A stretch of DNA of 62,768 bases from a virus (IMGVR_UViG_3300020123_000165:1-62768), one strand, 5' to 3'. Counted from the stretch's first letter, positions 33,998 through 54,984 are shown. The notes: a model not told the origin generated them from the sequence alone. Numbers and translations: made by a program.

Positions 33998-35179
33998 TCA
34001 GCTCTTATCTTCTCTGATACGGAAGAAGCGAGGGTGGCGAAGAGACCCATCGGGAGTAATCTGGTGATAATGGATCTCGATCACCTTGTCCTTGATGAGT
34101 GAGGGAGTATCCCAGAAGAGCTTACGTTCCTCATCAGACCAGCCGGCACCTACACTCACTCGCTTACCGTTGAACTTGACAATGACTGCGCCCAGCATCC
34201 CATAGTACTTACCTTCACCCTGGACCAAGGACTCCACTCGTAGGTCTACATCATTGACCTCCTTGAGTTTGAGCCAATCCCGATGCTTACCTTTCCTGTA
34301 AAGGCCTTTCACATTCTTAACGATGGCTCCCTCATACCCTGAGTCCAGGAAGCGGTTGTAAAGGGCCATGACTTCATCATCTGTCTCCACTCGGAAAGAG
34401 GGAACTAGCTTCAGGTTCTTATGTTCCACTCCCCCAGAAAATAGGCCTTCAAGAGCCTGGCGACGTTGGTAATAATGTCGGGATGGGCTCTTCCACTCAT
34501 CCATGTCCATGACATCGAATAGATGATAATTGGTATGCTCATTCTGCTGTTCCTTACGGCGAACGGCCGAGCTGGATTCATTGAAGTTTCCAGATATCAA
34601 CTCACCATCCAGAACACAGTCACCGAATTTCTTGGTAAGAACCAGGATCTGTTCTTTCAAGTGGTCTGAGGATGTGAAGGGAAGACCATTGCGAGAGAGC
34701 AGAGTAACACTCTGGCCATCCACAATAGCTACGCAGCGTAGACCATCATACTTGGGTTCCACGGCATAGGCCAGGCGTGGTTTGGCCCCATCATACTTAT
34801 GAGCTCGCATAACCTTGAACTGACGAATCAAGTCAGGGTAGGCTCGAAGGACCAGCTGAGGACCAATTCCACAGCGAAGGTCCTTCCGAATGATACGGGT
34901 GACCAATTCCTGGTCCTCAGCATCCAGGCAGGCCTCGCCCAGTAATCGGCGGGCTTCACTCCCGGTCAGGTCACGTTTGGCGCAGCGTTCCAGGATTTTG
35001 AAGGTGTCAGCCAAGCCCAGAGGCTCTCCTTCCACTGAGGTGATCCCGAAGGTGATAAAGGGGTCAGTGGCCAACCGAAGCACTTCCTTGAGCTCCCCCT
35101 GATATGGGTAGGCCTTGATCAGGTTGACTTTGTCATCGGGCGAGTTGAACTCGGCGATAGTATTGAATAGTTCAATCAT
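33998..35179 (-). CDS. ATP-dependent DNA ligase
   Basis: EPKYDGLR, LDGEL, YEGAIVK, WLKLK, SLRHPRF. Confidence 0.95.
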   Translation of the reverse strand: MIELFNTIAEFNSPDDKVNLIKAYPYQGELKEVLRLATDPFITFGITSVEGEPLGLADTFKILERCAKRDLTGSEARRLLGEACLDAEDQELVTRIIRKDLRCGIGPQLVLRAYPDLIRQFKVMRAHKYDGAKPRLAYAVEPKYDGLRCVAIVDGQSVTLLSRNGLPFTSSDHLKEQILVLTKKFGDCVLDGELISGNFNESSSAVRRKEQQNEHTNYHLFDVMDMDEWKSPSRHYYQRRQALEGLFSGGVEHKNLKLVPSFRVETDDEVMALYNRFLDSGYEGAIVKNVKGLYRKGKHRDWLKLKEVNDVDLRVESLVQGEGKYYGMLGAVIVKFNGKRVSVGAGWSDEERKLFWDTPSLIKDKVIEIHYHQITPDGSLRHPRFFRIREDKS

Positions 35180-37661
35180 TGTATTTCTGTCCTTTCCAAG
35201 TTTGGCCGGCGCCCCAGGTGCCGACTTCAATGTCCGCTACGATCGGGACAGGTAATTCTATCCCAAATTTGGCCAGCCACTCAGGGTTCTCCATACATTC
35301 TTTTATTCGGGGGAGCATCTCGTCCAGGTACTCAGTCTTTACCCACATGAGTATAGAGTCATGAACCTCGCCCTTGATACGAAGCTTAGCTCCATTGTCA
35401 GGAGCCTGTAGATTGTGATAGACAGATAGCATCCCCATCACCTTCAGGTCACCAATGAATCCCTGGACAGGGCTGTTGATAGCCTGGCGTTCAGCTTCAG
35501 CTTTAACCTGGCGATCCGGTGACCAAATACCCGGAAGCCGACGCTTACGACCCGATAGACTGCGAACGAATCCATCAATCTTGACCATAGCTCGTTGTCG
35601 ATCGTGCCATAGCGGGAGTGAAGAATAAGTTGAGAAGAAGCCATCTCGGATGTCAGAAGATTCATTGAAACTCACATCCCACTCATACTTCAACTTAGCG
35701 TATTCACAGAACTTGTTGGCTCCCATTCCGTAGACATACCCGAAGTTCACGCCTTTAGACTGTTTCCGTTTTTCTTTCCAGTGCTTGTTGATAGAGACCG
35801 CCTCATCTGGCCCCATATTCTCCAGAATGTCCAGGATACCCGTGACCGTCTTAGGTTCCCCTACCTGATGCCTTTCACAGTATACTTGAACTGTTCTTCG
35901 GGCTACTGAGAGATCCGTGGGATTTCCGCCCATTCGGAGGATGCCTAGAGTGGTTCTCCAGTGGACGTCGATGCCTTCATTGTAGCACTTGACCAACTCG
36001 GGGTCTTGTGAGACGATAGCGATGACTCGGAGCTCAGCCTGAGAAAGGTCACCCTGAATGAATGTCCAGCCTTCAGGAGCTTCAATTAGATTGCGAATAG
36101 TCCCATCTCGGGGAACAGTATGCATGCGGGAGGAGAATCGCCCCGTGACCGTTCCATGGAGTTTGGTCCCTAAGAACAAAGATGACCCAACCATATACTC
36201 ATCCCAACCATCTATATAGGTTGAGAGCATTTTCTGGTGTGATCGATAATCATTCAAGAGAGCCACTACGGGATGACCTTCCATCTCCGCCAGGGCGGCT
36301 TCTCCAGTAGACGGAGCCCCTTTGTCAGTGAATACCTGGGGAGTGAGGCCCAGCTTTCCGTACAGGACCTCTCCCACCTGCTTAGGACTATTCCAATTGA
36401 CTACAGATCCCGCCATCTTATTGAGCTGTTCCTCAGCGGCTTTCATCAGGATCTCGAGGTGTTCTTTTGCCTCCGCTTTGCGCTTCAGATTGACATGATG
36501 ACCTTCCCGCTCGATGACTTCATACATACGTGAGGCTGGCATCGTAAGGTGCTCATAGATATTGCGAGTCTCCTTATCCTGCATAAGCATCCGACGGAAT
36601 AGCCTGGCCAGAAGATAGGTGCGGTAACAGTCTCGGCCGCAATAGGTGAATAGCTTCGAGGCCTCAACATTACCTTTCTTCTCTGAAGTGGTTAGGTCGT
36701 AGTCCGGGGCGTTCAGCCAAAGGCGGGAGTTCTCTTTCAGGCCATGCGGAGTGTTCTCGTCCAGGTTGTAATGCATGAGCATCGTATCATCCTTGTTGTA
36801 GAATGATACTCCCATCTTCAGCCAGAGCCAGAGGCTATCGAATTTCCAGTTCTGGTTGATGACGGGAATGCCCTGATCTGCCATCCAGTGCAATAGCTTA
36901 CGCTGGGCTTCAGTGGGTAAAGTGGGGGCTTTTCGTACCGGAAGAACCCAGCAGGAGTCCGATTTAGGCAGGTAGAAGCCCGCACAGTTTATGTAACTGG
37001 CCGGGTTATACCAGTCCAAACCGGAAGTTTCCAAATCGCATACGAATTCTGGTTCATCTTGGTAGAGATCCATGAATTCTTGAAGATTTGATCGATCAAT
37101 GATACGGATCCGAGGCTCTACCCACTCAGTCTCAGCCGTTCCTTTGACCAAGTCCCCGAATCGCTTGATGATTCGTTTGAATTCGGGTTCTTTACTGGGA
37201 TCGCGAAGGACATAGGCAGGGGAGTAGCAGGGAACGTAAGTCACTCCGTCCTTCTCAATAAACTTACCAGCTACACTTGAGAGATTAGCTGCTTTCACCA
37301 CCGCTTTAGCCGCGGTCGCTCCGATGACCAGGACATACTTGGGTTTCTGCTCTTTGAGCTCATCCTGGATATATCCAGCACAGGCCTTGCACTCAGATGG
37401 TTCCACTTTCTTTCCATCTGGAGGCTGACACTTCACTACCCCGGTGGCATAGAAGTCTTTGATCCCCACACGCTCGAGCTCTGAGATCAGTACCTTACCG
37501 GGACCTCCAGTCAGGTACTCTTCTCGGTGGATGTTAGTGGCACTAGGGGCATCCCCAATGACCATCACTCCAGAGGAAGCAGCAGATCCATTCCCCCACA
37601 AACAGACTACCGCCGAGGATTGGTTAAGTGAGCATAGGGTGCATTTCTCATTTCTCATCAT
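35172..37661 (-). CDS. polA: Family A DNA polymerase with N-terminal UDG-like (SPO1-type) and 3'-5' exonuclease domains
   Basis: DLETSG, DLSQAELRV, K.VNFG..YG, VHDS; N-terminal C..C....C, GDAP, KCQPP. Confidence 0.95.
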   Translation of the reverse strand: MMRNEKCTLCSLNQSSAVVCLWGNGSAASSGVMVIGDAPSATNIHREEYLTGGPGKVLISELERVGIKDFYATGVVKCQPPDGKKVEPSECKACAGYIQDELKEQKPKYVLVIGATAAKAVVKAANLSSVAGKFIEKDGVTYVPCYSPAYVLRDPSKEPEFKRIIKRFGDLVKGTAETEWVEPRIRIIDRSNLQEFMDLYQDEPEFVCDLETSGLDWYNPASYINCAGFYLPKSDSCWVLPVRKAPTLPTEAQRKLLHWMADQGIPVINQNWKFDSLWLWLKMGVSFYNKDDTMLMHYNLDENTPHGLKENSRLWLNAPDYDLTTSEKKGNVEASKLFTYCGRDCYRTYLLARLFRRMLMQDKETRNIYEHLTMPASRMYEVIEREGHHVNLKRKAEAKEHLEILMKAAEEQLNKMAGSVVNWNSPKQVGEVLYGKLGLTPQVFTDKGAPSTGEAALAEMEGHPVVALLNDYRSHQKMLSTYIDGWDEYMVGSSLFLGTKLHGTVTGRFSSRMHTVPRDGTIRNLIEAPEGWTFIQGDLSQAELRVIAIVSQDPELVKCYNEGIDVHWRTTLGILRMGGNPTDLSVARRTVQVYCERHQVGEPKTVTGILDILENMGPDEAVSINKHWKEKRKQSKGVNFGYVYGMGANKFCEYAKLKYEWDVSFNESSDIRDGFFSTYSSLPLWHDRQRAMVKIDGFVRSLSGRKRRLPGIWSPDRQVKAEAERQAINSPVQGFIGDLKVMGMLSVYHNLQAPDNGAKLRIKGEVHDSILMWVKTEYLDEMLPRIKECMENPEWLAKFGIELPVPIVADIEVGTWGAGQTWKGQKYND

Positions 37662-38073
37662 ACAACTCCACGGGTATTCCTACTGATCTCAATAGCTGAG
37701 TACCTGAGTCATCTCGATAGGGAGTCTTGTAAACTACCCGAGCTATTCCCGAGTTGATGATCAATTGACTACATTTTAGGCAGGGTTGATGGGTACAGTA
37801 TAATGTCCCCCCTTGTAGCTTTATTCCAGACCTGGCGGCATAAGTGATAGCTCCCGCTTCGGAGTGAACAGTTCTATTACAAGGTGAGGCGGGACTGCAA
37901 TTCGTGGAATCACAGTGGGGAACTCCCGAGGGGGCTCCAGCATAACCCGTGGAGACTATTCGCCCATCTTGGGAGATCACCGAACCCACTTTAAGTCTGG
38001 TACAGGTGGACCTGAGGGCCATCAGCTCAGCGGTTTTCATGAGTAAAGAATCTCGACTTATACGGTCTTCCAT
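37648..38073 (-). CDS. dCMP deaminase
   Basis: RSTC.R..VG, HSE, PCLKC. Confidence 0.92.
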   Translation of the reverse strand: MEDRISRDSLLMKTAELMALRSTCTRLKVGSVISQDGRIVSTGYAGAPSGVPHCDSTNCSPASPCNRTVHSEAGAITYAARSGIKLQGGTLYCTHQPCLKCSQLIINSGIARVVYKTPYRDDSGTQLLRSVGIPVELYDEK

Positions 38074-40255: not shown

Positions 40256-40262
40256 AATTTCC

Positions 40263-41057
40263 TCATTTCAATACTACTTTGTCGGTTTGAAAGCAGTGTA
40301 GCGACGTGATGTGCATGGTGAGAGTTCCCGGAACCACGTTAGCCCAGTCCATCTCGGGTCGGGCCAGACGACACTGATCCAAGACCCAGAGCTGTAACCG
40401 TAAGGTAAGATAGACATCATCCCGAAAGTGTCGAACAAAGTCGCATGAGCGTAAGTAGTAAACGCAGTGTAGTCGATTGTTCCGCATGATGAAGTGATAG
40501 CCCAAAGAGCAGGGCACCCTCTTCTCCTGAACGGCGGCGCCCAAGTCCTCGGGAAACCAGACTGGCAAGTATGCTTGACGAGTCGTAGGTTCGTTAGCCA
40601 GGATCGTAACCAAATCATCTAAGTCTCCGTAAATGAAACGAATTCCATGGTGGGGTGATATATAATCTGAATGGAGGATTCCTCCAGAGGTTGTTCCAGC
40701 GGCTTTTGGCCAGTATCGTTCAGCATAGCTGTGGTCAAATTGGGGATCTTCTTCACCCTCTCGGCGATGTGTGTCGGCAGACGCTGAATAAGGCCAGATT
40801 CGCCATGTTTGTCCAGGATTGATCGGATCACCACTAACTCTCTCCTCGAGAAAGTGACGGTCTGCCCAGGGGAGGTTAGGTTTGATTTGCTCACGATAGA
40901 AGTCCAGATCCTCGGTAGGAAGATCATAAGTGAAGGAGTAATTCAACAGTTCCAGCATCGGCTGTGGAGCTTTGATAGACTGCCAACGAGTACCCTCGAC
41001 GATTGAAGCGTTCCTCAGTCGAGTGGAGACGTCTTGAGGTATGTTATCGAAGATCAT
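40263..41057 (-). CDS. Thymidylate-synthase-fold enzyme, probable dCMP hydroxymethylase/methylase
   Basis: TTRQA, RVPC, RSCDFVRHFRDD (Asp at the specificity position), SLH. Confidence 0.8.
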   Translation of the reverse strand: MIFDNIPQDVSTRLRNASIVEGTRWQSIKAPQPMLELLNYSFTYDLPTEDLDFYREQIKPNLPWADRHFLEERVSGDPINPGQTWRIWPYSASADTHRREGEEDPQFDHSYAERYWPKAAGTTSGGILHSDYISPHHGIRFIYGDLDDLVTILANEPTTRQAYLPVWFPEDLGAAVQEKRVPCSLGYHFIMRNNRLHCVYYLRSCDFVRHFRDDVYLTLRLQLWVLDQCRLARPEMDWANVVPGTLTMHITSLHCFQTDKVVLK

Positions 41058-41241
41058 TGATGGTGTCCAGGTCAATTACTTCCATTTTCTGGCTGAAAGT
41101 GGGGCAGGTACATGGTTTCTCTGGATCGACCAGCTGAGCGGGCAGCGCCCAGAAAGGTACAGGAAATTCACAGACATAGTACCCGGTGGTCGTCTTCTGG
41201 CTGATATGAACACAGTTCTTGCATTGTTCACGATCCGACAT
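41044..41241 (-). CDS. Small Cys-rich protein
   Basis: CKNC..C..C.C pattern; AAGGA RBS. Confidence 0.6.
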   Translation of the reverse strand: MSDREQCKNCVHISQKTTTGYYVCEFPVPFWALPAQLVDPEKPCTCPTFSQKMEVIDLDTINDLR

Positions 41242-41425
41242 GTTTATTCCTTTCTTCTAACATGGTTTGAGCAATACCGTAACATTGACCAGCCGCGTAT
41301 CGGCCAGAGGCTAAGGCTGACTGAGCGAAGTGATCCAACAGGACCTCTTTGAGAAGCTTATTCTGTCGCTCCAGGTAGTTGATCCGGGACTCATAAGTGG
41401 CTTGGTCATCCTTCGTTATCATCAT
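41228..41425 (-). CDS. Hypothetical phage protein
   Basis: DHFAQSAL...Y.IA..ML.ER pattern. Confidence 0.6.
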   Translation of the reverse strand: MMITKDDQATYESRINYLERQNKLLKEVLLDHFAQSALASGRYAAGQCYGIAQTMLEERNKHVGS

Positions 41426-42149
41426 CCTCTCCAATTCCTTCATCATTAAAGCTGGCCCCATTGGCCGTACAGTAATCTGCCAGGGCCTTACAGTCCAATT
41501 TCTCCTGGGCTATACCCCACATTTTAACCCTATGCTTATATGCGTACCGGCATTCCTTCTCATAGAATTTAGCTGTGGCATTCAAGAAGGTTCGGTAGTA
41601 TCGTGGATCATGCTTCTTCAGAAGCTCATAGAACTCCACAGCGTCGGTATGCTGAAACAGGATAGGAGCGAAGAGGGCCGTGAGAAAGCAATTTGCAAAG
41701 TAGAGTCGGTAGGTTCGTGGAGTGTGAGCAAGGCCCAGCTGACCAAGGATAATTGGAAGCAGCGCATAGTCAGCGGTGTGTTTTTGGATGAGCTCAGTAG
41801 ATCGGTATATGACATCCACTTCGGTCCATTTTGGCGTTTGTGTAATGATGATGGACCGTATACAATGACCTTGAGATCGTGCATCCTTCTTTTCTCCCAG
41901 TGTATTGAGGGCCACAGAGGTATGTGGCGATTTGCGGCGGGCCGCTAGTTTTGTCCGGGCGGCGTCCACTTCAGCCTGATTGAAATAGTTCCGCATCAGC
42001 TGGGCCACTTTACCCCCGCGATACCCCAACTGAGCCAGGTCCACCTCAGGTAGGGTGTTCATTTCCCAGGATACGCCTTGAACGACTTTGCGTACCCCCG
42101 TATAGATACCAGGTTGTTGAATGACATGCTTACAAAGATCAACTAACAT
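41406..42149 (-). CDS. Divergent second thymidylate-synthase-fold protein
   Basis: QGHCIRS (PC equivalent) and YRSTELIQKHTAD (RSxD..D equivalent); near TS gene. Confidence 0.6.
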   Translation of the reverse strand: MLVDLCKHVIQQPGIYTGVRKVVQGVSWEMNTLPEVDLAQLGYRGGKVAQLMRNYFNQAEVDAARTKLAARRKSPHTSVALNTLGEKKDARSQGHCIRSIIITQTPKWTEVDVIYRSTELIQKHTADYALLPIILGQLGLAHTPRTYRLYFANCFLTALFAPILFQHTDAVEFYELLKKHDPRYYRTFLNATAKFYEKECRYAYKHRVKMWGIAQEKLDCKALADYCTANGASFNDEGIGEDDDNEG

Positions 42150-42541
42150 TACGCTCCTAACAAGAATGATACTACGGATGGTATTTGAACGACTTTATTC
42201 ATTTTACGCTGAGAACGCTTTCGAGCTGCTTCCCTCTCCTTGACTCCTTCGTTGAGCCGATACTCTGCTTTAGTGATGAGATGTGGTTTTTGAGGTTCAT
42301 TGTCATTAGCACCCCATAGATACTCGGGAGTCCAACGACCTTGTGGGCTATCTCTCCTCCATCCGGTGATATGGATTTCTTTCATGGAGTGAAGAAGGCT
42401 AAGGTACTCGCGCCCATTACGTGCCGAGATGAAACATCTGGCCTCAATATCATGGAAAGTAAGCTTCTGTCCTTTCTGAAGCTCCCGCCTGATGCGATTC
42501 ATATTAGGATGCATTACCCTTGGGAGCATTTGATGGCACAC
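42149..42541 (-). CDS. Winged-helix-like DNA-binding protein
   Basis: R.YL..LH..IHI.GW.R....P.Y.WG. Confidence 0.55.
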   Translation of the reverse strand: MCHQMLPRVMHPNMNRIRRELQKGQKLTFHDIEARCFISARNGREYLSLLHSMKEIHITGWRRDSPQGRWTPEYLWGANDNEPQKPHLITKAEYRLNEGVKEREAARKRSQRKMNKVVQIPSVVSFLLGA

Positions 42542-42777
42542 TGGACAAGTCGATCAACCTCATCATCAGAGTAGTCATGTGAGACCATCATCTGAGTCAC
42601 GTCATCTGACATATGGGTATAGAGTGGATAGTCTACTAGATCACACCAAGTACCCTCTGGCCAGTAATAGATAGATCGCATACTCTTCTTCCCAAAGATG
42701 AGGTCATAGTTCTCTCGACCCTGCTCACTCAAAGCTTTGGAGACTAACCGATCCCCCGTGATATCATTCTTACTCAT
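42514..42777 (-). CDS. Hypothetical protein
   Basis: NDITGD..SK and WPEGTWC..HMSDD motifs. Confidence 0.6.
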   Translation of the reverse strand: MSKNDITGDRLVSKALSEQGRENYDLIFGKKSMRSIYYWPEGTWCDLVDYPLYTHMSDDVTQMMVSHDYSDDEVDRLVQCAIKCSQG

Positions 42778-43001
42778 GACTTGACCTCATAGCAAACGCT
42801 TTGTTGGATCAGAGAATCAGCTGTGTTCTTGGCGTTGTTCTCGGAGATTGCCATCAGCTTGACCTCGTAATTGGCGTCTGAGGTGTAGTAATTATATGTC
42901 CGCCATTCCTGCCATAGCAGGTGATACCATTTCTTGTATTCGACCGTGAAAGTCTTCCCTATGGGGTCATGCACTACGCGTGCTTTACGGTAGAGCCTCA
43001 T
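42774..43001 (-). CDS. Hypothetical protein
   Basis: ORF track; coupled. Confidence 0.6.
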   Translation of the reverse strand: MRLYRKARVVHDPIGKTFTVEYKKWYHLLWQEWRTYNYYTSDANYEVKLMAISENNAKNTADSLIQQSVCYEVKS

Positions 43002-43276
43002 TATTCATTCTCCAGTTCTTGCGGGGATGGAATGATGTGGAGGGGCTTTCGCTTTCCATATACCTGCTCTTGATAGATTCCGGGTATCGCTGACTTATGC
43101 ATTGGATGTCCAGAACCATCTATGTAGGCTGCTGCTGGCTCCTTCCGCAGCTTCTCGATCATGGCGAGTTGGATGTCGCAGGCGAATTTTTGGGCTATAG
43201 ACGCACCGACAGAACTGCTATCACAAGTCTTTACCCAAATTTCTCTAACTTCTTGCTCAGTCAGCAAAATGCTCAT
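43001..43276 (-). CDS. Hypothetical protein
   Basis: ORF track; coupled. Confidence 0.6.
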   Translation of the reverse strand: MSILLTEQEVREIWVKTCDSSSVGASIAQKFACDIQLAMIEKLRKEPAAAYIDGSGHPMHKSAIPGIYQEQVYGKRKPLHIIPSPQELENE

Positions 43277-43662
43277 GATTCCTCCGAGGGGGATGGTGCA
43301 GGTGGAAGTGGCATCCAGTGGGATACGCGATAATTCTTAGGACAGTCGTCCTCGTCAGCATCTTCGCTATACCAGTTTCCGGACTTCCTGTTATCAAGAC
43401 CGCCGTCTTTCAACTGGAACCACAATGTTTCCATCCCGTATGATTTGTGCCATACAAGGTAGCTACCCCATTCCGTAGGCGCAGTTTCAATCGGCATCCA
43501 CTGTGGCGAACTCAGTGCGGCTTGCCAGCCAGTCCACATTGATTGAATATGCTCGTGGTCGTATTTGAATTCACAGCTCCAAGTATCAACACGGCCAGTG
43601 ATATCAAGGCTCCTTGATTTTGCCCACTTCTCGAACTGCTTACGGATTTTCTGGTTGGTCAT
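43273..43662 (-). CDS. DUF551-like protein
   Basis: WMPIETAP ... VSHWMPLPPAP. Confidence 0.8.
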   Translation of the reverse strand: MTNQKIRKQFEKWAKSRSLDITGRVDTWSCEFKYDHEHIQSMWTGWQAALSSPQWMPIETAPTEWGSYLVWHKSYGMETLWFQLKDGGLDNRKSGNWYSEDADEDDCPKNYRVSHWMPLPPAPSPSEES

Positions 43663-43775
43663 TTCAATTCATCCTTATGAATAAAGACGCTGGAGTTATC
43701 TGAAAAGTAAAGTGTGTAGAATTGACCACACAAAGAGTGAAGTTTTCTGGTTACATGCTTCCCTTTGTAAGTCAT
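43659..43775 (-). CDS. Small hypothetical protein (38 aa)
   Basis: Read manually; ATGA overlaps at both ends. Confidence 0.45.
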   Translation of the reverse strand: MTYKGKHVTRKLHSLCGQFYTLYFSDNSSVFIHKDELK

Positions 43776-44311
43776 GGTTTCCACTCCCCTTTCCTGATCT
43801 TGTCTGCGATGTCCATTAGATGACAGTAAGCCTCTTTGACAAAGCCTAGTGCAATCCTCTCCACCAGCTTCGCGTCATGCTCACGGAGGGTGGAATTATC
43901 GGATTTGGTTGCGAGGGCCGCATGCGCAAGATCAAGCACCGATTCCGTGTAGTGATCTTGGTGCATATGCGGGGTTTTAGTGATCTTCTGCAAAGCCTCC
44001 CGCAGCTTATCGTTCTCAGCCTGCGCTTGGGCAAGTTGCTGGCGGAGTCCCCTTTCGGACTCACAACAGTCGGCATAGTGAACCTCTGTTTCTTTGAGTG
44101 AGATATTCTCAGCCTCCAGTTCTCCAACCTTGGCAGCGTAGTCAGAGATGATTGTATTATCCAGAGCTACCTTGGCTTCTAGGTCGGCTCGGGCGAAGGT
44201 GGAGAAGGCTTCAAGTGCCTCAAACTCACCGGCAATATCACCTTGGGGGAAGCAGTAGATTTCTGATTCCTTTGCCCACTGCACTACCTGCTCTTTGGTC
44301 GGTATGGTCAT
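43772..44311 (-). CDS. Hypothetical coiled-coil protein
   Basis: ORF track; coupled. Confidence 0.6.
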   Translation of the reverse strand: MTIPTKEQVVQWAKESEIYCFPQGDIAGEFEALEAFSTFARADLEAKVALDNTIISDYAAKVGELEAENISLKETEVHYADCCESERGLRQQLAQAQAENDKLREALQKITKTPHMHQDHYTESVLDLAHAALATKSDNSTLREHDAKLVERIALGFVKEAYCHLMDIADKIRKGEWKP

Positions 44312-44571
44312 TTCATTCCCCCTTTCTTTAGTAATTCAGTATCCTCTTTGCGGGAATCAAGATCGAGCAGTTCGCTGTACCCATAGCATCGTTGCCCATC
44401 AGTGAAGCCTGCCGCGATAGGTTCCCTGAAAAGACGTGTCCAGTTGTACCCACCTGTCTTGATGTGGGATAACACCTCGGCAAACGCATCATGGCCGATT
44501 GATTTCGGGAAGATGAAAAGCTGCTCGCCGTCTTCCTCGCACGTAACGACTACATATTTCATTTCAACCAT
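44308..44571 (-). CDS. Hypothetical phage protein
   Basis: MKYVV..FIFP..H...AGF..CYG.S..L.SR..D. Confidence 0.7.
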   Translation of the reverse strand: MVEMKYVVVTCEEDGEQLFIFPKSIGHDAFAEVLSHIKTGGYNWTRLFREPIAAGFTDGQRCYGYSELLDLDSRKEDTELLKKGGMK

Positions 44572-45124
44572 TTACTTTCCCCTTAACGGTGGCTAGGGCG
44601 TCGCATATAGCCGTCCTAATTTTAAAATAGCGTTCTGTCTCAAGAGGTTGTCCTACGGTCGCGTATATCTGATTATTGACCGATTCCAACGCATCCACCA
44701 GCACCTTCACCTTGTCTTGCTCGGCGGAGAGTTGTTGCCTAAGACTTTGCTTACTATGTAAAGCCTCGTTGAGTGCTTGCTGTAAAGAAGTATTAGAAGC
44801 CTCAAGCTCGGCTACTCTGGCGCGGAGGGCTTCGATTTCAGTCGCAGACCTACCATAGGCATAGGCGTCATCGTCTCCACTGAGTTTCACTGGGAGAGGG
44901 TGGGTGAAAAGGTAGGTTCCTACAGGGGGTAAAGGAGCCAGCTGTTTGAGGGCTGTGAATTTAGCAAAACCATTGTCGGTGTTGACCACCTCGGCCACCG
45001 GCTCCTGCTTGCTCAGTTCTGCGACCAGGGCGTGGGCGAAGTCTTGCGTCAGCCCAGCAGGGAGGCCAATTCTGAATCTGCTTTCGCCGTTGACCAAACG
45101 CAGGGCGATTTCTTTAATGTTCAT
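44564..45124 (-). CDS. Hypothetical protein
   Basis: QEPVA..LPPVGT.LF motif plus coiled coil. Confidence 0.6.
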   Translation of the reverse strand: MNIKEIALRLVNGESRFRIGLPAGLTQDFAHALVAELSKQEPVAEVVNTDNGFAKFTALKQLAPLPPVGTYLFTHPLPVKLSGDDDAYAYGRSATEIEALRARVAELEASNTSLQQALNEALHSKQSLRQQLSAEQDKVKVLVDALESVNNQIYATVGQPLETERYFKIRTAICDALATVKGKVNG

Positions 45125-45414
45125 TCATATCTCCCGTAATTGCTGAACAATATACCTGTATGTTTTGAGTACCGAAGACGGTAGTAGAAGCGACCAACCC
45201 TGATAATGAACCCAAAACTGTAGCGATCCCATAAAGACCAGAAACTAATCCCTTGCGGCGGGATCATCCCTTCCTGCCTGATGATGTGAATCATCGCGTG
45301 CTCCTCAGCAATGTTTCCACTTGCCGCACATGTGGCAACGGTACGTATATTCTGTAGCATCACCCCCGCAATATGACCACTGGCAGGGGATTCCGGATGT
45401 GGTTTGTATGTCAT
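45121..45414 (-). CDS. Hypothetical protein
   Basis: AAGGAG RBS; ORF track. Confidence 0.55.
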   Translation of the reverse strand: MTYKPHPESPASGHIAGVMLQNIRTVATCAASGNIAEEHAMIHIIRQEGMIPPQGISFWSLWDRYSFGFIIRVGRFYYRLRYSKHTGILFSNYGRYE

Positions 45415-45426
45415 TTCATTCTCCTT

Positions 45427-45540
45427 ATCAGCTAACCCTGAAGCCCCGTCGTGATTCGAAAACTAATACCCGAAGGGTGGCACGACAACTACCGGCTAAT
45501 CAAGAGGGCACGTCCTCTGTCGACTCCAGGGCTAACTGAT
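45427..45540 (-). ncRNA. Putative structured RNA (19-bp closing stem, multibranch interior)
   Basis: AUCAGUUAGCCCUGGAGUC/GGCUUCAGGGUUAGCUGAU with 4 G-U pairs; inner stems AGAGG/CCUCU and GUCGUG/CACGAC; two UUCG loops. Confidence 0.7.
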
Positions 45541-45845
45541 CATAGCGCCGGTAAGGCGCGAAGTTCTTGGATCTTCTGGTCAATCTCATTGATCTTGAGT
45601 TGAGTCTCTGCCAGAAGCTTGGCTTTTTTGATTTCAAACATGTTGATAGTCTGGAGGGTAAAGTCATTGTCTTCGGCTTCGAAGACAATGTGAGCTTGTC
45701 CCACTCTGATCCAGCCATGCCCACTCATATCTTGTGAATAGAATGACATCTGCCCGATGATATCCTTGGGAGACATCTGCGGCCAAAGGGATGTGTTAGT
45801 GTATTCGCTGGTAATCCAAGCGGACAGGGTTGCTTTTACTCTCAT
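45540..45845 (-). CDS. Hypothetical protein
   Basis: ATG overlaps upstream stop; ORF track. Confidence 0.6.
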   Translation of the reverse strand: MRVKATLSAWITSEYTNTSLWPQMSPKDIIGQMSFYSQDMSGHGWIRVGQAHIVFEAEDNDFTLQTINMFEIKKAKLLAETQLKINEIDQKIQELRALPAL

Positions 45846-46288
45846 GATTTCTCCCACCAATAAGGTGCTGGACGCCCACGGTTCCACTGGGCAAAGGTTT
45901 TGGTATGGTAATACTTGCGATATGCTTCTACCGGATCAGTGCAGCGCATACTTTCTGGCATACACTGAACGAACTCGGAGACTCCTACGGGAAAGCGATT
46001 TCCCTCATTGGCCAGGGATGCGATGATCTTCTGGCACATATGGACCTTCTGGTAGCGGAAGGTGTATTCCTCGCATAGGGCCAGAGCATGCATAGCCAGC
46101 CAGTTATAATTGGTCCGGTTCTTTCTGGCCCAGAGGGTACAGGGGTGGTTCATATGGCTGATCCTGTATGGGCCGTCAGCCACTGCACTCATTATCTGAG
46201 TAGACTCCAAGCATTGTTTGACTATGTGTTTGTCACATAGCATTTGAGCTGCTAAAACTGGGTTTGTGTCTACTACGAAGATTTGCAT
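45842..46288 (-). CDS. Pyrimidine-dimer DNA glycosylase (endonuclease V-like)
   Basis: M.IF....P..AA...CDKH.VK..LE..Q, H.NHPC..W, EY..RY.K.H, DPV.AYR.YY. Confidence 0.85.
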   Translation of the reverse strand: MQIFVVDTNPVLAAQMLCDKHIVKQCLESTQIMSAVADGPYRISHMNHPCTLWARKNRTNYNWLAMHALALCEEYTFRYQKVHMCQKIIASLANEGNRFPVGVSEFVQCMPESMRCTDPVEAYRKYYHTKTFAQWNRGRPAPYWWEKS

Positions 46289-46290
46289 GA

Positions 46291-46854
46291 TTACCTCTTG
46301 TGTTTAGAGTAGAATTTAGCCATCAGAATAAGCTCATCAATCGTAGCATCTTTCTTCAGTATGTTAGCCCGACGACTTACTATTATTATATTCTCTTTTG
46401 TGTACCCTTTATCATTCTCTATTCGATCAATAGATGGAGCATTCATCCAAGTCGATTTATCCTCTCTATGCAAAGGTATACCAAATACCGGGCAGGTTTC
46501 GGGTATGATTATGTCAGAGAGTTGTATAGTGTGTTCCATGCCAAGTTTCTTGGCTCGTTGGCGAGAATTTCTCCATATTACATAAGCCGCTTTATGAGTC
46601 CAATTTCTAGAACGTCTAGCTTGTACTATATCACCTCGTCCACATTTCTTGCACTGAGACTTCTTTCCGGAACTAAGGTCTCCCCGTATATTGTAAGAAA
46701 AGGCCCCTTTAGGTTTAGCCTCTCCACATGAAATGCAAACTTGATTCTCACCCATGTTAGATTCAAGTCTTTTCTTTCCGTTGAATTGATTAGAGCAGGT
46801 ATTAGAACAGAATTTTCGTTTGGTGGATTTTCCACAATTGGGACAAATATTCAT
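46291..46854 (-). CDS. HNH endonuclease with Zn-finger N-terminus
   Basis: CPNCG..FCS..C; CPVFG; PSIDRI....GY...N......AN..K. Confidence 0.85.
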   Translation of the reverse strand: MNICPNCGKSTKRKFCSNTCSNQFNGKKRLESNMGENQVCISCGEAKPKGAFSYNIRGDLSSGKKSQCKKCGRGDIVQARRSRNWTHKAAYVIWRNSRQRAKKLGMEHTIQLSDIIIPETCPVFGIPLHREDKSTWMNAPSIDRIENDKGYTKENIIIVSRRANILKKDATIDELILMAKFYSKHKR

Positions 46855-46914
46855 GGTTTATTCGAGGTGAAAATTACATTTTACACTAGATAATCGAGTT
46901 AGTGCACTTGCTTG

Positions 46915-47203
46915 TTACAGTTTCTCCATGAACTCAGCAGAGAATACCATGAAAGCCACCACTTGCTCATCTTTGGGGACTTTGGCTACCACTGCGTGCA
47001 GGTTCTTGATGCATTCGTTGATCCGGTCACGCTGGTCGCTCGGAAGACTGGCGATCATGCCCAGGGCCAGGACTTTCTCCAGGCTGAGCTGAGGACGGTA
47101 CTGGTCGACAGGAACCATCACAGTGTAGTCGCATTTGACGCAGAGAGGAGCTTTCGATCCCTCTTTCTGGGTTCCGCATTTAGGGCAGACATATGCAACG
47201 GTA

Positions 47204-47214
<11 letters not shown>
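46915..47214 (-). CDS. Hypothetical Zn-ribbon protein
   Basis: CPKC...CVKC. Confidence 0.6.
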
Positions 47215-47766
<552 letters not shown>

Positions 47767-47770
<4 letters not shown>

Positions 47771-48081
47771 TGCTCTTGCTCCTTAGCGAAGTCAAATAGG
47801 CTTTTCCAGAGCTGCTCACGATACTCAAGAACCTGCTCTTGTTGCTGTTTGTTAAGGTTGCCGGCATGGAGTCCGGGAAACAAGTATTCAATAACGGAGA
47901 ACTTGTCTTTGATATCAGCTTTAATGAAGTCAAGCAAAGGACGAGTGAGGGGGTATGTAGGAATATACCGGCCATGGATTTCGTCCTCTACGGAGGTGAT
48001 GCAGTCGCAGATGTAAGGCGAGTATTTCTCGTCATACTTGAGACGAGCTTTAACCAGGATTTCATACAGGGTGTGTGCCAC
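47767..48081 (-). CDS. Hypothetical protein
   Basis: ORF track; GAGG RBS. Confidence 0.6.
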
Positions 48082-48120
48082 TTGAGTACCTCTTTATTGA
48101 ATTGGGACAATTCATTATAT

Positions 48121-48163
48121 GAGAAATTGGGTCATTTCGGTGGCCCAATTTCTCTTTTCTTTT
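48121..48163 (+). terminator. Strong hairpin, T-tailed on the + strand
   Basis: GAGAAATTGGGTCA-loop-TGGCCCAATTTCTC then TTTTCTTTT. Confidence 0.65.
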
Positions 48164-48548
48164 ACAGTGATTGTACCATCTTCTCAAGCTCTTCCAACGG
48201 CGTCTCGCCCAACTGATCTCTCTTCTTCTGGGCGATGAGAGCCATGATCTCCTGCTTTTTCTGGCGATTCTCTGCCTCAGTAGCAGCAGCATCACGCTCA
48301 GCTAATTTGACGTCGATGATATGTTTCACGATATCAAAGGCCAGTTGAACCGTCTCATCCGACTTGCGTTCTTTGATCACGAATGAGACGTCTTCGCTGT
48401 TCTTCAACTTAGCATGCAGATTGCGAGCAATGTCATCCAGATTAGTTTTAGATGCACTGGTGAGGGGCAGATCCCATAGATCCGATACAAACAGCATACC
48501 AATCGGGGTATCGAAATGAAGTTTGATACGAGAGGCTTTTTCAAACAT
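48162..48548 (-). CDS. Conserved hypothetical phage protein
   Basis: MFEKASR.KL.F....G....DLWDLPL...LD.IA. Confidence 0.75.
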   Translation of the reverse strand: MFEKASRIKLHFDTPIGMLFVSDLWDLPLTSASKTNLDDIARNLHAKLKNSEDVSFVIKERKSDETVQLAFDIVKHIIDVKLAERDAAATEAENRQKKQEIMALIAQKKRDQLGETPLEELEKMVQSL

Positions 48549-48559
48549 GGTGTTACTCC

Positions 48560-50566
48560 TTAGAACTTGATGTTAATGATACGAGAGAAGCTGCCCTTGA
48601 CCCGGCAGACAAGTGAGTTGCGTTGCGTACTGCTAAAACCGAGGCCACTCAGTTGATCCCGGGATTCTTCTGTACGCATACGGGAGCCCACCATCTCCAT
48701 GACCTTACGATGCGATTCCAGTGACGTATTGAGGAACTCATTATAGAATCCCCGAGCCGTACCGTCATTCTGACAACCATCGATCATGAAGAAATAATGG
48801 CGATTGCCTACTCCCTGACCATCCCAGTGGTTTGGTGATAGCATGATAGCATTAACCCGCTGGAAGGTTCGGGTCTGGATACCCCACACTTCTTGGGTCT
48901 TAACCTCTTGGGATGAAGATAGTGACTTGATCATCTCAATACCTTTATCATGTGAGTACCTGAACTGGGCCACCAAGATCGTCTCTCCATCCCTGACCGC
49001 CTTTTCATAAGCAAAGCGATGAACGTCTCCCAAGAAATCCATTTCTACTTCAAACCCCACATTTGTAGACTCACGTTTTCGGTAGTTATGTACTATCAGT
49101 TGGTAGACACCTTCTTTCATTGCCCGCTTATTGCCGTAGAAGATATTCTCTACTGGTTCCCGAGTAGATCCTACTCCAGCATTCATGTCAACGTCCAGGC
49201 GACCACCACTGGGAGAGGTATTGTTACGATTTCCAAAATAAATCTCGTAACCCCCCGGCTCTTGCATATGAAAGTCAAGGTCATCAAAATTGAACCAAGC
49301 TAACCGACAGCATAGATCACCTGAGACGTTCCCACCCGCTTTCTTTACCCGTTCTTTGATACTGTCAGTCACGTCACCATTGTATGACCAGCTGAATCCG
49401 TTGTCCCACTTGAATAGCCGCTGGGCAGTAGGGTCGACTGGAGCAATCAAACTGACCAGGTTGCCGGTGTGACTGTTGTCCATCATCACTTCAATACTGT
49501 CAGCCTTGGGAAGAATGTCAGTGATGAACTTGTCAATACTGACTTCTTCTATCCGATCTAAGCGAGGCACGCTGTCTTTGGTACTGGAAGCCAGGTCGTC
49601 GAACACACTACCTTCCATCCGCTTTCGAGCTGAACGGTCGGCGAACAGTACGTTGTTGACGGAGATGTCAGGCAGCTTGGCGTACCGCCGTTCAAGTGAT
49701 GAGGTCAATCCCAAGTCTTCCACCGTTTCCTTGGCCTTGTCAATCATCGCCTTGGTCACGAGTGCTGTCGGGCGCTTGTAGTTCTGGGGGGCCACCATCG
49801 CTTCGAACCGTTTAACAGCGTCTTCCAATTCCATGCCTTCGGACAGTTCGGTGAGCAATGTGCCAATACTGGTGTTGCGGATACGAGTGATAGCCTGAGA
49901 AATGCTGGCACTGACCTTGGTCCACACCCAGATATCGTCGGTGTATTGGGCCTTTAGTTTCTTGAACTCTGAGACCGCGAACCGGTTTTCTTCCCCTTTA
50001 TACAGGCTATTCTGATCGATGAGTTCAAGGACGGTGTCCAACGCCTCGAAAGTGATCTCATTAAGACCACGCTTGAATACGTCGAAGGTGGATCGCTTTT
50101 CGCCGAGATATGCACCGGGATCTTTCTTGACATACTCTGCAGGGATGTTGATGAAGAAGTGGTTCCAGGTCTTGACACCGTTGATAGTGTCTTCGAAGTT
50201 CTTGTCCGTGCCGGCAGTACGTTCTTCATGCGTGAACACGTTGTCAATCGGGAAGGACTTAACGAAAAAAGCCATCTTATCAGCAACATCCTGATACTCA
50301 GGCTCACCACTGATAGTCGTGTCCCAGAGACTGACTACCTTGCCGTCAATGATAGCGACCACATTGCCGACCGCACGAATGAACTGTTTGCAGCACGAGC
50401 AGTCATGCTCAGTGCGTTCACGATACAGCGGATTGGATCCCTCAGGAAAGCTGTTGAGATAGGTATCCCACAGACCTTCCTTTGGAGCCTGTGTGCGGTA
50501 CAGCGGGTGTTGTTGCATAGTGGCGAATTGCCGAGCAACCGCCTCTTTAAAAGCTACGAAATTCAT
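48560..50566 (-). CDS. Large conserved phage protein (668 aa) with HDCxxC and YfaP/DUF2135-like region
   Basis: HDCSCCKQFIR; DDLDFH..P....IYF; GRLDVD.N...PVENI. Confidence 0.7.
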   Translation of the reverse strand: MNFVAFKEAVARQFATMQQHPLYRTQAPKEGLWDTYLNSFPEGSNPLYRERTEHDCSCCKQFIRAVGNVVAIIDGKVVSLWDTTISGEPEYQDVADKMAFFVKSFPIDNVFTHEERTAGTDKNFEDTINGVKTWNHFFINIPAEYVKKDPGAYLGEKRSTFDVFKRGLNEITFEALDTVLELIDQNSLYKGEENRFAVSEFKKLKAQYTDDIWVWTKVSASISQAITRIRNTSIGTLLTELSEGMELEDAVKRFEAMVAPQNYKRPTALVTKAMIDKAKETVEDLGLTSSLERRYAKLPDISVNNVLFADRSARKRMEGSVFDDLASSTKDSVPRLDRIEEVSIDKFITDILPKADSIEVMMDNSHTGNLVSLIAPVDPTAQRLFKWDNGFSWSYNGDVTDSIKERVKKAGGNVSGDLCCRLAWFNFDDLDFHMQEPGGYEIYFGNRNNTSPSGGRLDVDMNAGVGSTREPVENIFYGNKRAMKEGVYQLIVHNYRKRESTNVGFEVEMDFLGDVHRFAYEKAVRDGETILVAQFRYSHDKGIEMIKSLSSSQEVKTQEVWGIQTRTFQRVNAIMLSPNHWDGQGVGNRHYFFMIDGCQNDGTARGFYNEFLNTSLESHRKVMEMVGSRMRTEESRDQLSGLGFSSTQRNSLVCRVKGSFSRIINIKF

Positions 50567-50593
50567 TACGAATCTCCTTAAATGGCAAACAAG

Positions 50594-50839
50594 TTAGTTG
50601 TGAATGATGCCGCCATTGAGTTGACGGCGACGACGAGCGATCTCGCGCTTGCCATTGGTCTGTCCACCCAGCATTTCCCTCCAAGGGGTTCCGGAATTGG
50701 TCTGGCCTTTCCCACTGGGCTTGTTTTGACCATGGCCGCGAGAAACATATTCCCCCATTTGAGACAATGCAGCATTGAGACCCGACATGGCAATAAGGGC
50801 CATCATAGCTTTGGCTCGAGCGAACGGATTTGACTTCAT
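50594..50839 (-). CDS. Small basic hypothetical protein
   Basis: AAGGAG RBS; ORF track. Confidence 0.6.
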   Translation of the reverse strand: MKSNPFARAKAMMALIAMSGLNAALSQMGEYVSRGHGQNKPSGKGQTNSGTPWREMLGGQTNGKREIARRRRQLNGGIIHN

Positions 50840-50929
50840 TTACTTCTCCTTAAGGCTTAGGTTGTGGAACGTGTCCACGATGATCATGCCAGCTCATTTC
50901 TCGCTCCAGGTATGGGTTAGTGACAATTC

Positions 50930-50958
50930 ATTATATCCTAACCCAATCCCATGGTCAG
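50930..50958 (-). promoter_or_regulatory. Sigma70-like promoter
   Basis: CTGACC-N17-TATAATGAA; -10 flanked by TGGGTTAG/CTAACCCA inverted repeat. Confidence 0.65.
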
Positions 50959-51497
50959 TACTTGTTCTGGATTCTTTCTTCGTTAGTGCGATGCTTAGCC
51001 ATGTAAATAGCATGGAAGTCATGGCCTTGATGACGAATCACCATCAGCAGACGATAAAGCACCTGGGCGACTTGAGCTTGGAACTGCTCCAGATCGGTAA
51101 CCTGGGGATTCCGTTTCCAATGTTTGGCCTTCAGCATGTTAACTGCCAGGCCCAGAGCGATAGACACGTCCAGCATTTGGTAGGTCCAAGGGAGGCCTTC
51201 GTATTGGTCTGCCTGGCGCAGTGCTTCGATCCGGTCACTGGTAATGCCCGCCAGGATACAGAGTTCTACCGCGAAGTGGAGACAGTCAGCCAGTTCTTCG
51301 CTCAGTGACTGGGGAGTGGCTGTCCAAACCTCTACCATTTCCTCTTGCAGATACCAGGACATCAGCCGGAACCAATCTTGACCGGCTCGACTGGTAAAAT
51401 CTAGCGGAACCGGGGGTGGGGTATATCCCAGTTCGGTTTCGACAGGAGCCAGTTTTTCCATCAGGCTACGTTGGAATTCAAATACTTTTTGCAGCAT
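50955..51497 (-). CDS. All-alpha NTP pyrophosphatase (dUTPase/dCTPase, MazG-like)
   Basis: EE..E, EELADCLHF, LK.K.WK, Y..K...N..R....Y. Confidence 0.8.
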   Translation of the reverse strand: MLQKVFEFQRSLMEKLAPVETELGYTPPPVPLDFTSRAGQDWFRLMSWYLQEEMVEVWTATPQSLSEELADCLHFAVELCILAGITSDRIEALRQADQYEGLPWTYQMLDVSIALGLAVNMLKAKHWKRNPQVTDLEQFQAQVAQVLYRLLMVIRHQGHDFHAIYMAKHRTNEERIQNKY

Positions 51498-51498
51498 T

Positions 51499-51984
51499 TT
51501 ACATCCTTTCCAGTGCAGAAGTGAGGTTGCGAAGAAGTGTTGGATAAGAACGGGGGTTGGTGAAATCATATATGAAATCAGGCTCCAGCTCCATCATCAG
51601 ATCCTGATATGCGTCGTACAATGCTATGAGATTCTCATGCGTTCCTTGCATCTGGTCACGCAGTTCGTATGTGGCCTTGATCGTTTGGATGTTCGGGCAG
51701 CAGAAGACCAGGTAATGTTTGGCCCGAGCCTTATATGCCGCTTCTTTGGTCATGGCTGTGGTACTGCGGATGATGGGACCATATACCAGGTCACTGATAT
51801 TCGGGTGACGGTCCAAAATCAAAGTTTTCGGGCAGGCGTTTGCCCAGTTGTGCCACCGCTGTGCCTCTTCCAGTGACTTCGCCGTTGAGCGATGCGCGTG
51901 TGCGTACGGGAGCTTAAAATGCTCACTGAGCTGATTGATCAAGGTGCTCTTCCCTGCGTTATCCATTCCTTCTATGATTATCAT
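51499..51984 (-). CDS. dNMP kinase (thymidylate-kinase-like)
   Basis: IIEGMDNAGKSTL, ILDRH..SDLVYG. Confidence 0.85.
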   Translation of the reverse strand: MIIIEGMDNAGKSTLINQLSEHFKLPYAHAHRSTAKSLEEAQRWHNWANACPKTLILDRHPNISDLVYGPIIRSTTAMTKEAAYKARAKHYLVFCCPNIQTIKATYELRDQMQGTHENLIALYDAYQDLMMELEPDFIYDFTNPRSYPTLLRNLTSALERM

Positions 51985-54922: not shown

Positions 54923-54951
54923 GTGAGTCCATTGGGTTAGTGGAGTGATAA

Positions 54952-54980: not shown

Positions 54981-54984
54981 TAAA

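Follow-up and report, generated by a model that had tools for sequence, protein, structure and literature searches.

The virus record IMGVR_UViG_3300020123_000165, which was analysed over its whole length of 62,768 bp (hereafter the window), encodes on its minus strand a set of nucleotide-metabolism genes that includes a divergent enzyme of the thymidylate synthase (TS) fold, TS1, and a second, cryptic TS-fold protein, TS2, together with a deaminase, a Family A DNA polymerase (PolA), a pyrophosphatase and a kinase. We infer, as a somewhat probable reading of these genes, that the phage synthesises a deoxycytidine nucleotide modified at C5 ahead of replication and that this nucleotide substitutes for cytosine in the phage DNA. 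The reading is drawn from an invariant aspartate of TS1 (Asp177 in the numbering of E. coli ThyA) that aligns with the corresponding Asp of T4 gp42 and of the phage Xp12 enzyme, the substitution N177D being the determinant of deoxycytidine monophosphate (dCMP) use in published work; from the fold of TS1, which lies nearest to enzymes of cytosine nucleotides; from the conservation of the gene cassette; and from the association of deaminases with TS genes in a preprint. The first-pass annotation had proposed cytosine substitution at nucleotide level; to this we add that TS2 is an obligate partner in the cassette and that PolA carries a UDG domain.

Identity and residue signature of TS1

TS1 (40263..41075, minus strand; 270 aa, with an internal ATG at codon 7 that is possibly the genuine start) is a divergent TS-fold enzyme predicted to modify dCMP at C5. 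It matches phrog_160 'thymidylate synthase' with an E-value of 3.4e-29 and scores narrowly above the Pfam PF00303 cut-off (26.2 bits, cut-off 24.3), and its homologues are labelled 'thymidylate synthase' in database annotations. The first-pass annotation had singled out a motif whose last residue is Asn in ThyA, which is specific for deoxyuridine monophosphate (dUMP), and Asp in T4 dCMP hydroxymethylase (dCH). The motif is present in TS1 as YLRSCDFVRHFRDD and, in a MAFFT alignment of TS1 and four family members with E. coli ThyA, the Xp12 TS homologue and T4 gp42, its last Asp (TS1 D220) occupies the ThyA Asn177 column, in which Xp12 and T4 likewise have Asp. HMMER alignments to MilA and to HY126 dCMP hydroxylase place Asp177 in the same register, and all 46 aligned homologues have the residue, as do all 80 IMG/VR homologues. 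Given this register in both kinds of alignment and this invariance, the residue argument of the earlier annotation is correct. Lee et al. 2026 report that N177D confers preference for dCMP, and Yang et al. 2021 (eLife) identify PF00303 as the domain most linked to modified-cytosine metavirome contigs, with positions 177 and 147 best discriminating modified from unmodified contigs, 177 as the top residue, and TS homologues with Asp177 enriched.

The catalytic residues Cys146, Arg166, Ser167, Asp169 and His207 are all kept in TS1 (Cys189 and Asp212 in its own numbering correspond to 146 and 169) and are the same in E. coli ThyA, Xp12 and T4. At the remaining positions compared, the four proteins read, in the order E. 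coli ThyA, Xp12, T4 and TS1, N, D, D and D at 177; L, N, D and R at 143; H, P, T and S at 147; R, R, R and Q at 127; Y, Y, Y and F at 209; and E, E, E and N at 58. Arg143 was found in 77 of the 80 IMG/VR homologues by a motif scan, the remaining three being perhaps mis-anchored by the regular expression. The chain ends 10 residues after the His207 equivalent in TS1, as against 57 in ThyA, 63 in the Xp12 methylase and 30 in T4 dCH. By fold, the best Foldseek matches of the TS1 model are cytosine-nucleotide enzymes, namely MilA, HY126 dCMP hydroxylase and T4 dCH. In Lee et al. 2026, position 143 tracks methyl versus hydroxymethyl transfer, an acidic residue going with hydroxymethyl, and D169N marks the 5-hydroxy-dCMP synthases. 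With Arg143, Asp169 and a very short C-terminus, TS1 is, as judged from these residues, outside every published product signature (methyl, hydroxymethyl, hydroxyl), and the position-143 rule is itself weak because the Xp12 methylase has Asn143.

A cryptic second TS-fold protein

TS2 (41406..42149, minus strand; 247 aa) has no sequence match in Pfam, NCBIfam or PDB and a sole match to an unnamed PHROG; searches of solved-structure sequences with TS2, singly and as a profile, returned nothing relevant. Its AlphaFold2 model (pLDDT 95.1, pTM 0.89) supports the earlier claim of a second divergent TS-fold gene: all Foldseek PDB matches listed are thymidylate synthase, T4 dCH or HY126 dCMP hydroxylase (TM 0.40-0.50), the best being T4 dCH (E 3.4e-5, TM ~0.47), and the ESM Atlas neighbours of TS2 likewise carry PF00303. 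Profile-profile comparison of TS1 with TS2 gave no signal (probability 0.3%), and the two proteins are related at the fold level only.

An exhaustive HMMER search with TS2 recovered 200 representative proteins at E <= 0.001. In an alignment of 60 family sequences, which share 23-61% identity with the TS2 of the window, Lys47, Tyr55, Cys96, Arg116, Glu119 and Asp127 are invariant, and the retention of the Cys/Arg/Glu/Asp set across such divergent sequences points to selection on an active site. Judging by motif spacing and predicted secondary structure, Cys96 would lie at the start of the strand that bears ThyA Cys146, R116-S-T-E119 would correspond to ThyA R166-S-C-D169, and Asp127, eight residues further on, would be placed like ThyA Asn177. 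The model has ~46 residues (31-76) between the first strand (20-30) and strand 77-82, where ThyA has ~90, including folate contacts. TS2 seems, as modelled, to be without the folate-binding half of the fold and to have kept the nucleophilic Cys and the pyrimidine/phosphate contacts. A prediction of the TS1-TS2 complex scored 0.00 against a mark of 0.32, a result that was obtained without controls and weighs neither for nor against binding.

Conservation of the cassette among relatives

The cassette has a fixed order in relatives (kinase, pyrophosphatase, TS2, TS1, deaminase, PolA), and TS1, TS2, the deaminase and PolA all have their best database matches in one and the same set of phages. Serbin has, in order, the kinase, a 'dUTPase', a hypothetical protein (TS2), TS, the deaminase and PolA; Muddy has the same order from gp49 to gp44; and in Clostridium phage CP3 TS2 and TS1 adjoin PolA. 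MW202455 encodes a kinase, an NTP-PPase, ThyX, a 'pyrimidine hmase synthase' (TS2) and TS, followed by a ligase and PolA, and since ThyX stands there beside TS1 and TS2, the pair is not needed for dTMP in that phage. At the TS2 position of Muddy, gp47 (L006 5335-6228, 297 aa) is a weak match to TS2 (hhalign probability 32%, E 4.8e-4) that has a G-x-C-M motif in common with it (G-S-C-M in gp47) and was not matched in a six-frame hidden Markov model search with the TS2 profile; it may be a very divergent TS2.

TS1 homologues number 4,251 at E <= 1e-10; 120 GenBank phage records contain a match to TS1 and 430 IMG/VR stretches a relative of it, and carriers of the cassette are found among the phages of Proteobacteria, Firmicutes and Actinobacteria. 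Gene neighbours within 8 kb were tabulated for a TS1-seeded set of 80 IMG/VR loci with 70 distinct TS1 sequences, in which TS2 accompanied TS1 at 37 loci, PolA at 41 and the deaminase at 47. Both PolA and TS2 were found in 36 loci, PolA without TS2 in 5, TS2 without PolA in 1, and neither in 38, counts that are descriptive only because the loci are mutually related. In four of the five loci with PolA and no TS2, TS1 starts less than 1 kb from the edge of the contig, three of them leaving under 100 bases, the fifth, L071, being a genuine miss, and the single locus with TS2 and no PolA stops at a contig edge. Loci seeded with TS2, for which an 11-sequence alignment served as query (the 60-sequence alignment being too diverse), had TS1 directly downstream in 21 of 21 cases and the deaminase and PolA next in 19, the contigs of the remaining two ending first. 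Considered together, the two sets indicate that TS2 depends on TS1, whereas TS1 also exists alone.

The TS1 homologues that lack TS2 occupy quite different gene settings. Examples are the stretches L058 3096-13552, L012 4428-13747 and L043 4669-13831. In contigs of 100-430 kb the neighbours are a metallophosphoesterase, RNase HII and a protein of the R2K ATP-grasp type. In L012 the neighbouring genes encode another PolA, a C5 DNA methylase and an amidotransferase resembling asparagine synthase, and in L043 they encode an FkbM methyltransferase, an ATP-grasp protein and a fusion of HAD and nucleotidyltransferase domains. Other modification pathways may be represented by these settings.

The general idea of such a cassette is already in print, since the published neighbourhood of deaminase, TS with Asp177 and PolA is the gene set of the window. 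According to bioRxiv 10.1101/2024.12.05.627091, deaminases within 3 kb of a TS gene were found in 104 of 149 cases on modified-cytosine contigs and in 17 of 277 on unmodified ones; their top neighbours were TS, PRA-PH and DNA_pol_A with its exonuclease; five of seven deaminase-linked TS homologues produced 5-methyldeoxycytidine (5mdC) in vivo; and the deaminases are proposed to convert 5mdCTP to dTTP. The obligate TS2 partner looks like a new feature of the system, and we found no description of TS2, or of the TS1 subtype with Arg143 and a short tail, in the literature searched.

In the window itself the cassette is interrupted by HNH, DHH and DnaJ genes and by ~9 kb of small genes. An HNH_3 homing-endonuclease-like gene (38058-38354, minus strand) lies directly upstream of the deaminase and separates it from the DHH gene, at a point where TS1 adjoins the deaminase in relatives, and may have contributed to the break-up of the cassette. 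It is one of four such genes, the others being at 9515-9982 (plus strand), 28259-28702 (minus) and 31324-31755 (minus).

Accessory genes of the pathway

The kinase and pyrophosphatase pair that the first-pass annotation had placed at 50955-51984 was recovered, as were the dCMP deaminase and the dedicated PolA. The kinase (51499..51984, minus strand) is a P-loop protein of the deoxynucleoside monophosphate (dNMP) kinase type, with the motif GxxxxGKS and a match to phrog_761 at E 5.7e-20; its Pfam and NCBIfam matches are under the cut-off, and among solved structures SPbeta YorR alone was found by sequence (E 0.023). The pyrophosphatase (50955..51569, minus strand), an all-alpha nucleoside triphosphate (NTP) pyrophosphatase of the MazG / dimeric-dUTPase type, belongs to PF08761 dUTPase_2 (27.4 bits, cut-off 22.9) and also to the NTP-pyrophosphohydrolase PHROGs phrog_173 and phrog_12184, a sequence search of solved structures having returned nothing. 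Translation of the pyrophosphatase probably begins at Met25 (51497), one base past the stop codon of the kinase.

The deaminase (37648..38073, minus strand), a zinc enzyme of the dCMP/dCTP family, clearly belongs to PF00383 (81.5 bits) and shows the motifs HxE and PCxxC, and its end overlaps the start of PolA (35172..37661, minus strand). PolA combines UDG-superfamily, 3'-5' exonuclease and polymerase domains; the polymerase domain matches PF00476 at 228 bits and the N-terminal UDG-superfamily domain (residues 25-165) matches PF03167 at 69 bits, with the motifs GDAPS and YSPAY in place of the family-4 consensus. Cys residues in the UDG domain suggest an Fe-S cluster. The same open reading frame (ORF) has a UDG-like N-terminus in 35 of 41 cassette PolAs, and the database relatives of PolA are mostly phages of Vibrio, Salmonella, Escherichia and Klebsiella. 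Judged by family assignments and conserved residues, the accessory genes would match a nucleotide-level pathway.

Absent genes and restriction sites

A Pfam scan of 70 window ORFs revealed no glycosyltransferase, DHFR, ThyX or second ThyA, and a six-frame search of the genome for ThyX, DHFR and glycosyltransferase families 2 and 1 gave no match, in agreement with the earlier remark that no glycosyltransferase is visible. A six-frame search with T4 beta-glucosyltransferase likewise gave no match, but its control gave no signal anywhere either, and since many large ORFs belong to no family, a novel transferase may escape detection. Families of thymidine hypermodification (5-hydroxymethyluracil (5hmU) DNA kinase, aGPT-pyrophosphorylase and others) had no match in the 70 scanned ORFs.

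Common 6-bp restriction sites had been described as plentiful by eye, which holds insofar as none of the 64 palindromic hexamers is missing; their total is nevertheless mildly depleted, with 698 observed against 816 expected under a maximal-order Markov model or 980 from base composition, and palindromic tetramers number 3,180 against 3,548 expected. This mild avoidance is compatible with protection by modification and is not evidence for modification.

Proposed pathway and likely product

In the pathway that we propose, the all-alpha pyrophosphatase would hydrolyse dCTP, and probably dUTP, to the monophosphate, feeding TS1 and keeping canonical dCTP out of DNA. Cys189 of TS1 would then attack C6 of dCMP and a substituent would be added at C5, with Asp220 reading the 4-amino group. 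The P-loop kinase would phosphorylate the modified dCMP, host NDP kinase would yield the triphosphate, and the phage UDG-PolA would incorporate it. The deaminase could supply dUMP, or convert some of the modified deoxycytidine (dC) pool to the matching deoxyuridine (dU) or deoxythymidine (dT) nucleotide. TS2 would catalyse a further step on this nucleotide and may act on the TS1 product.

Asp177 points to dCMP as substrate, and Asp169 argues against 5-hydroxylation. The C-terminus of ThyA is required for its reductive step. The short C-terminus of TS1, the lack of a DHFR and a polar position 143 (Arg) incline us, with low confidence, towards a non-reductive product such as 5-hydroxymethyl-dCMP (5hm-dCMP). 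The likeliest product is 5-hydroxymethyl-dC, which we put forward tentatively; 5-methyl-dC comes next and seems doubtful, as does a product with a different group that needs TS2. It is conceivable, and we offer it as speculation, that TS2 is an active enzyme and a new branch of the TS fold that lost the folate site, kept the Cys nucleophile and the cytosine/phosphate contacts and, with TS1, builds at the mononucleotide level a C5-substituted cytosine other than 5-methylcytosine (5mC), 5-hydroxymethylcytosine (5hmC) or 5-hydroxycytosine. A possible route would be for 5hm-dCMP to be re-opened to an exocyclic methylene, which would capture another nucleophile or a reductant.

Several observations weigh against cytosine substitution. 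We found in the literature no base analysis of any phage that carries the cassette; the paper on Yersinia phage P744 does not mention modification or thymidylate synthase, the Serbin announcement provides a gene list only, and the accessible part of the Muddy literature holds nothing on base modification. TS1 is remote from all characterised enzymes, with 17% identity to ThyA and scores of 18-36 bits against the NCBIfam thymidylate synthase equivalogs, far under their cut-offs of 108-405. It lacks Glu58 (Asn/Ser instead, in a column that falls in an uncertain part of the alignment), Arg127 (Gln) and Tyr209 (Phe), which could mean a different chemistry or an error in the N-terminal half of the alignment, and its Arg143 is neither hydrophobic, as the methyl rule would have it, nor acidic, as the hydroxymethyl rule would. 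The matches of the kinase and the pyrophosphatase are weak and at family level only. Palindrome depletion is mild and general (observed/expected 0.86), and full protection would not require any depletion. Undecorated, free 5hmC would be unusual. Finally, by analogy with the published deaminases, the deaminase adjacent to TS1 could drain modified cytosine from the pool into dT or 5-hydroxymethyldeoxyuridine (5hmdU). Of the proposal made by the first-pass annotation there stands, then, a nucleotide-level pathway that has residue, accessory-gene and literature support, and its weak points are that TS1 fits no published product signature and that the deaminase may divert the product.

Alternative readings

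The cassette could instead serve a thymidylate bypass, in which TS1 makes 5-methyl-dCMP and the deaminase turns it into dTMP/dTTP, giving the phage thymidine independent of host ThyA and a DNA that is canonical or partly 5mC. This route has been proposed for Xp12-like phages, and the 5mdC made by five of the seven deaminase-linked TS homologues, as given in bioRxiv 10.1101/2024.12.05.627091, fits it, as do the adjacent or overlapping TS1 and deaminase genes of relatives and the finding that the window holds neither a ThyA nor a ThyX nor any further gene for dTMP supply that we could find. We nevertheless judge it improbable: relative MW202455 has ThyX besides TS1 and TS2, TS1 is without the long C-terminal tail common to ThyA and the Xp12 methylase, no DHFR was found, and TS2 would be left without a role. 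The same route, moreover, coexists with full 5mC substitution in Xp12, and so modified DNA would not be excluded by it.

A heterodimer of TS1 and TS2 with one composite active site, in which Arg166 of TS1 (the equivalent of ThyA Arg126) reaches into the TS2 site, has a similarly small chance of being correct. Thymidylate synthases are obligate dimers in which Arg126' and Arg127' are contributed across the interface; the Arg pair is missing from TS2 while Arg126 is kept in TS1, and TS2 always accompanies TS1 (21 of 21 loci), all of which would suit such an arrangement. The 38 of 80 TS1-seeded loci in which TS1 occurs without TS2, however, imply that TS1 works alone in other phages.

We regard it as still less probable that thymine is the base replaced, through deamination of a modified dCMP (for example 5hmdCMP) to 5hmdUMP that takes the place of dT, possibly with hypermodification, while the UDG-PolA and the dUTPase-type pyrophosphatase bar uracil. 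Deaminases of such neighbourhoods gave 5hmdU in vivo from 5hmdC nucleotides (bioRxiv 10.1101/2024.12.05.627091), and active UDG-PolA fusions have been described in phages of the SPO1-like and SP15-like groups, whose genomes are T-modified; a UDG domain is present in this PolA (69 bits) and in 35 of 41 cassette PolAs, and the DUF8224 protein of the window (48560-50566) is common in ViI-like phages, which are reported to carry hypermodified thymine. The PolA relatives, in turn, fit the N4-like group (a membership that we deduce), whose UDG domain is inactive according to published work, and the 70 scanned ORFs yielded no thymidine-hypermodification family. An enzyme with the dUMP-specific Asn177, which TS1 does not have, would also be the simpler route to hmU. 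The motifs GDAPS and YSPAY of this PolA, which stand in place of the family-4 consensus, speak against the thymine reading as well.

That TS1 is an ordinary divergent dTMP synthase, TS2 a degenerate, non-catalytic duplicate and the DNA canonical is very unlikely: the 'thymidylate synthase' labels of TS1 homologues, a score above the Pfam gathering threshold and a mild palindrome avoidance that suggests exposure to restriction are set against Asp177 in 80 of 80 homologues, the changes of Arg127 to Gln and Tyr209 to Phe, the missing C-terminal segment, which is reportedly needed for dTMP formation, the invariant Cys/Arg/Glu/Asp of TS2 over 60 sequences and the ThyX of MW202455.

Genome context and other features

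The window is a whole IMG/VR virus record with a completeness rating of 100% and an exact direct terminal repeat of 127 bp. Structural and lysis genes (capsid, SU10-type adaptor, GH108 endolysin, holin) occupy the plus strand at ~0.8-26 kb, and a block of replication and nucleotide-metabolism genes, to which the cassette belongs, the minus strand at ~27-52 kb. A megablast search of 40000-52000 against GenBank phages returned no match, so that the genome has no close DNA relative there. Five public sequencing runs were listed for it; three of these contain 5-12% of the sampled words, in the form of Logan contigs, which cannot reveal base modification, and no run with RNA is among those listed. 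A PcfJ-like gene leaves the 3' end of the record (61276-62766, plus strand) and continues at its 5' end (3-683, plus strand); because the record ends share the exact 127-bp repeat, the start point of the record probably cuts this gene.

Within the replication and metabolism block, a 668-aa protein of DUF8224 / phrog_1735 (48560-50566, minus strand) has matches in 557 phage records (Salmonella, Klebsiella, the Caulobacter phiCbK group, Bacillus and others); it was considered as a modification enzyme and dropped, since none of the 80 TS1 loci has it within +/-8 kb. A homologue of the pyrimidine-dimer DNA glycosylase of the T4 endonuclease V family (PF03013) lies at 45842-46288 (minus strand), and an Imm5-like protein (PF21805), whose C-terminal half has a long Ala/Asp/Tyr low-complexity repeat, at 47204-47770 (minus strand). 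A Cpn10/GroES-like co-chaperonin is encoded at 5511-5918 (plus strand) and a DnaJ-domain protein at 39417-40046 (minus strand). GC skew is strongly positive over 52001-56000 (0.23, 0.16), unlike in the rest of the genome, and this region consists of a plus-strand Prim-Pol/DUF5906 primase-helicase gene and the stretch that follows it.

Significance and comparison with known systems

Modified bases decide whether phage DNA escapes restriction, CRISPR and other nuclease defences, and also how it can be cut, cloned, amplified and sequenced by standard methods. Should TS2 perform a second catalytic step, it would be a TS-fold enzyme working without the usual folate site and possibly a new enzyme class. 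If, on the speculative reading above, TS1 and TS2 built a novel C5-substituted cytosine, a DNA base not yet described would be present in hundreds of phages, among them relatives of mycobacteriophage Muddy, whose type has been described as therapeutic. The cassette is also available in culture, in Serratia phage Serbin, Pseudomonas phages PMBT14 and Almagne, Mycobacterium phage Muddy and Brevundimonas phage Polewnik.

Among known systems, the T4 pathway (gp42, gp56 dCTPase/dUTPase, gp1 dNMP kinase, Cd deaminase and alpha/beta glucosyltransferases) has, like the window, a TS-fold enzyme with Asp177, an all-alpha pyrophosphatase, a dNMP kinase, a dCMP deaminase and a polymerase of its own, gp56 being a member of PF08761. 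TS1 resembles gp42 at the level of the fold only (Foldseek E 3e-11, 16-18% identity), with Arg143 instead of Asp, Glu60 apparently not kept and a shorter C-terminus, and the window differs further in that no glycosyltransferase was found, that PolA replaces PolB and that TS2 is additional. The 5mC pathway of Xp12 (TS homologue, dCMP deaminase, DHFR), for which complete replacement of C by 5mC is documented, shares with the cassette Asp177, the adjacency of TS and deaminase and a siphovirus-sized genome. Its TS is ThyA-like (31% identity to E. coli ThyA) and retains Arg127, Tyr209 and an entire C-terminal tail, all of which TS1 lacks; a DHFR and a HAD hydrolase lie beside it, whereas a six-frame search of the window found no DHFR, and a profile of 60 TS2-family sequences did not find TS2 in Xp12. 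The MetaGPA neighbourhoods (Yang et al. 2021; bioRxiv 10.1101/2024.12.05.627091) show the same domain set and residue logic and probably come from the same class of phages, and their accessible descriptions include neither a second TS-fold gene nor the Arg143 / short-tail subtype.

The flavin-dependent 5-hydroxy-dCMP synthases (RB69 gp48, DLP3 gp80, HY126 AfhB) are small TS-fold proteins that end shortly past the His207 strand and are among the best structural matches of TS1 and TS2 alike, but their hallmark change of Asp169 to Asn is missing, TS1 having Asp212 and TS2 Glu119. MilA, the CMP hydroxymethylase of the mildiomycin pathway, provides the best match of TS1 both by sequence profile (E 7.5e-7) and by fold (Foldseek E 2.7e-12) and has Asp177 too; unlike TS1, it is a bacterial antibiotic-pathway enzyme with a ribonucleotide substrate, Asp143 and a long C-terminal extension. 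Compared with all of these, the system works like the pre-replicative cytosine pathways of T4 and Xp12, lies outside all characterised enzyme subtypes and adds to them an obligate second TS-fold protein.

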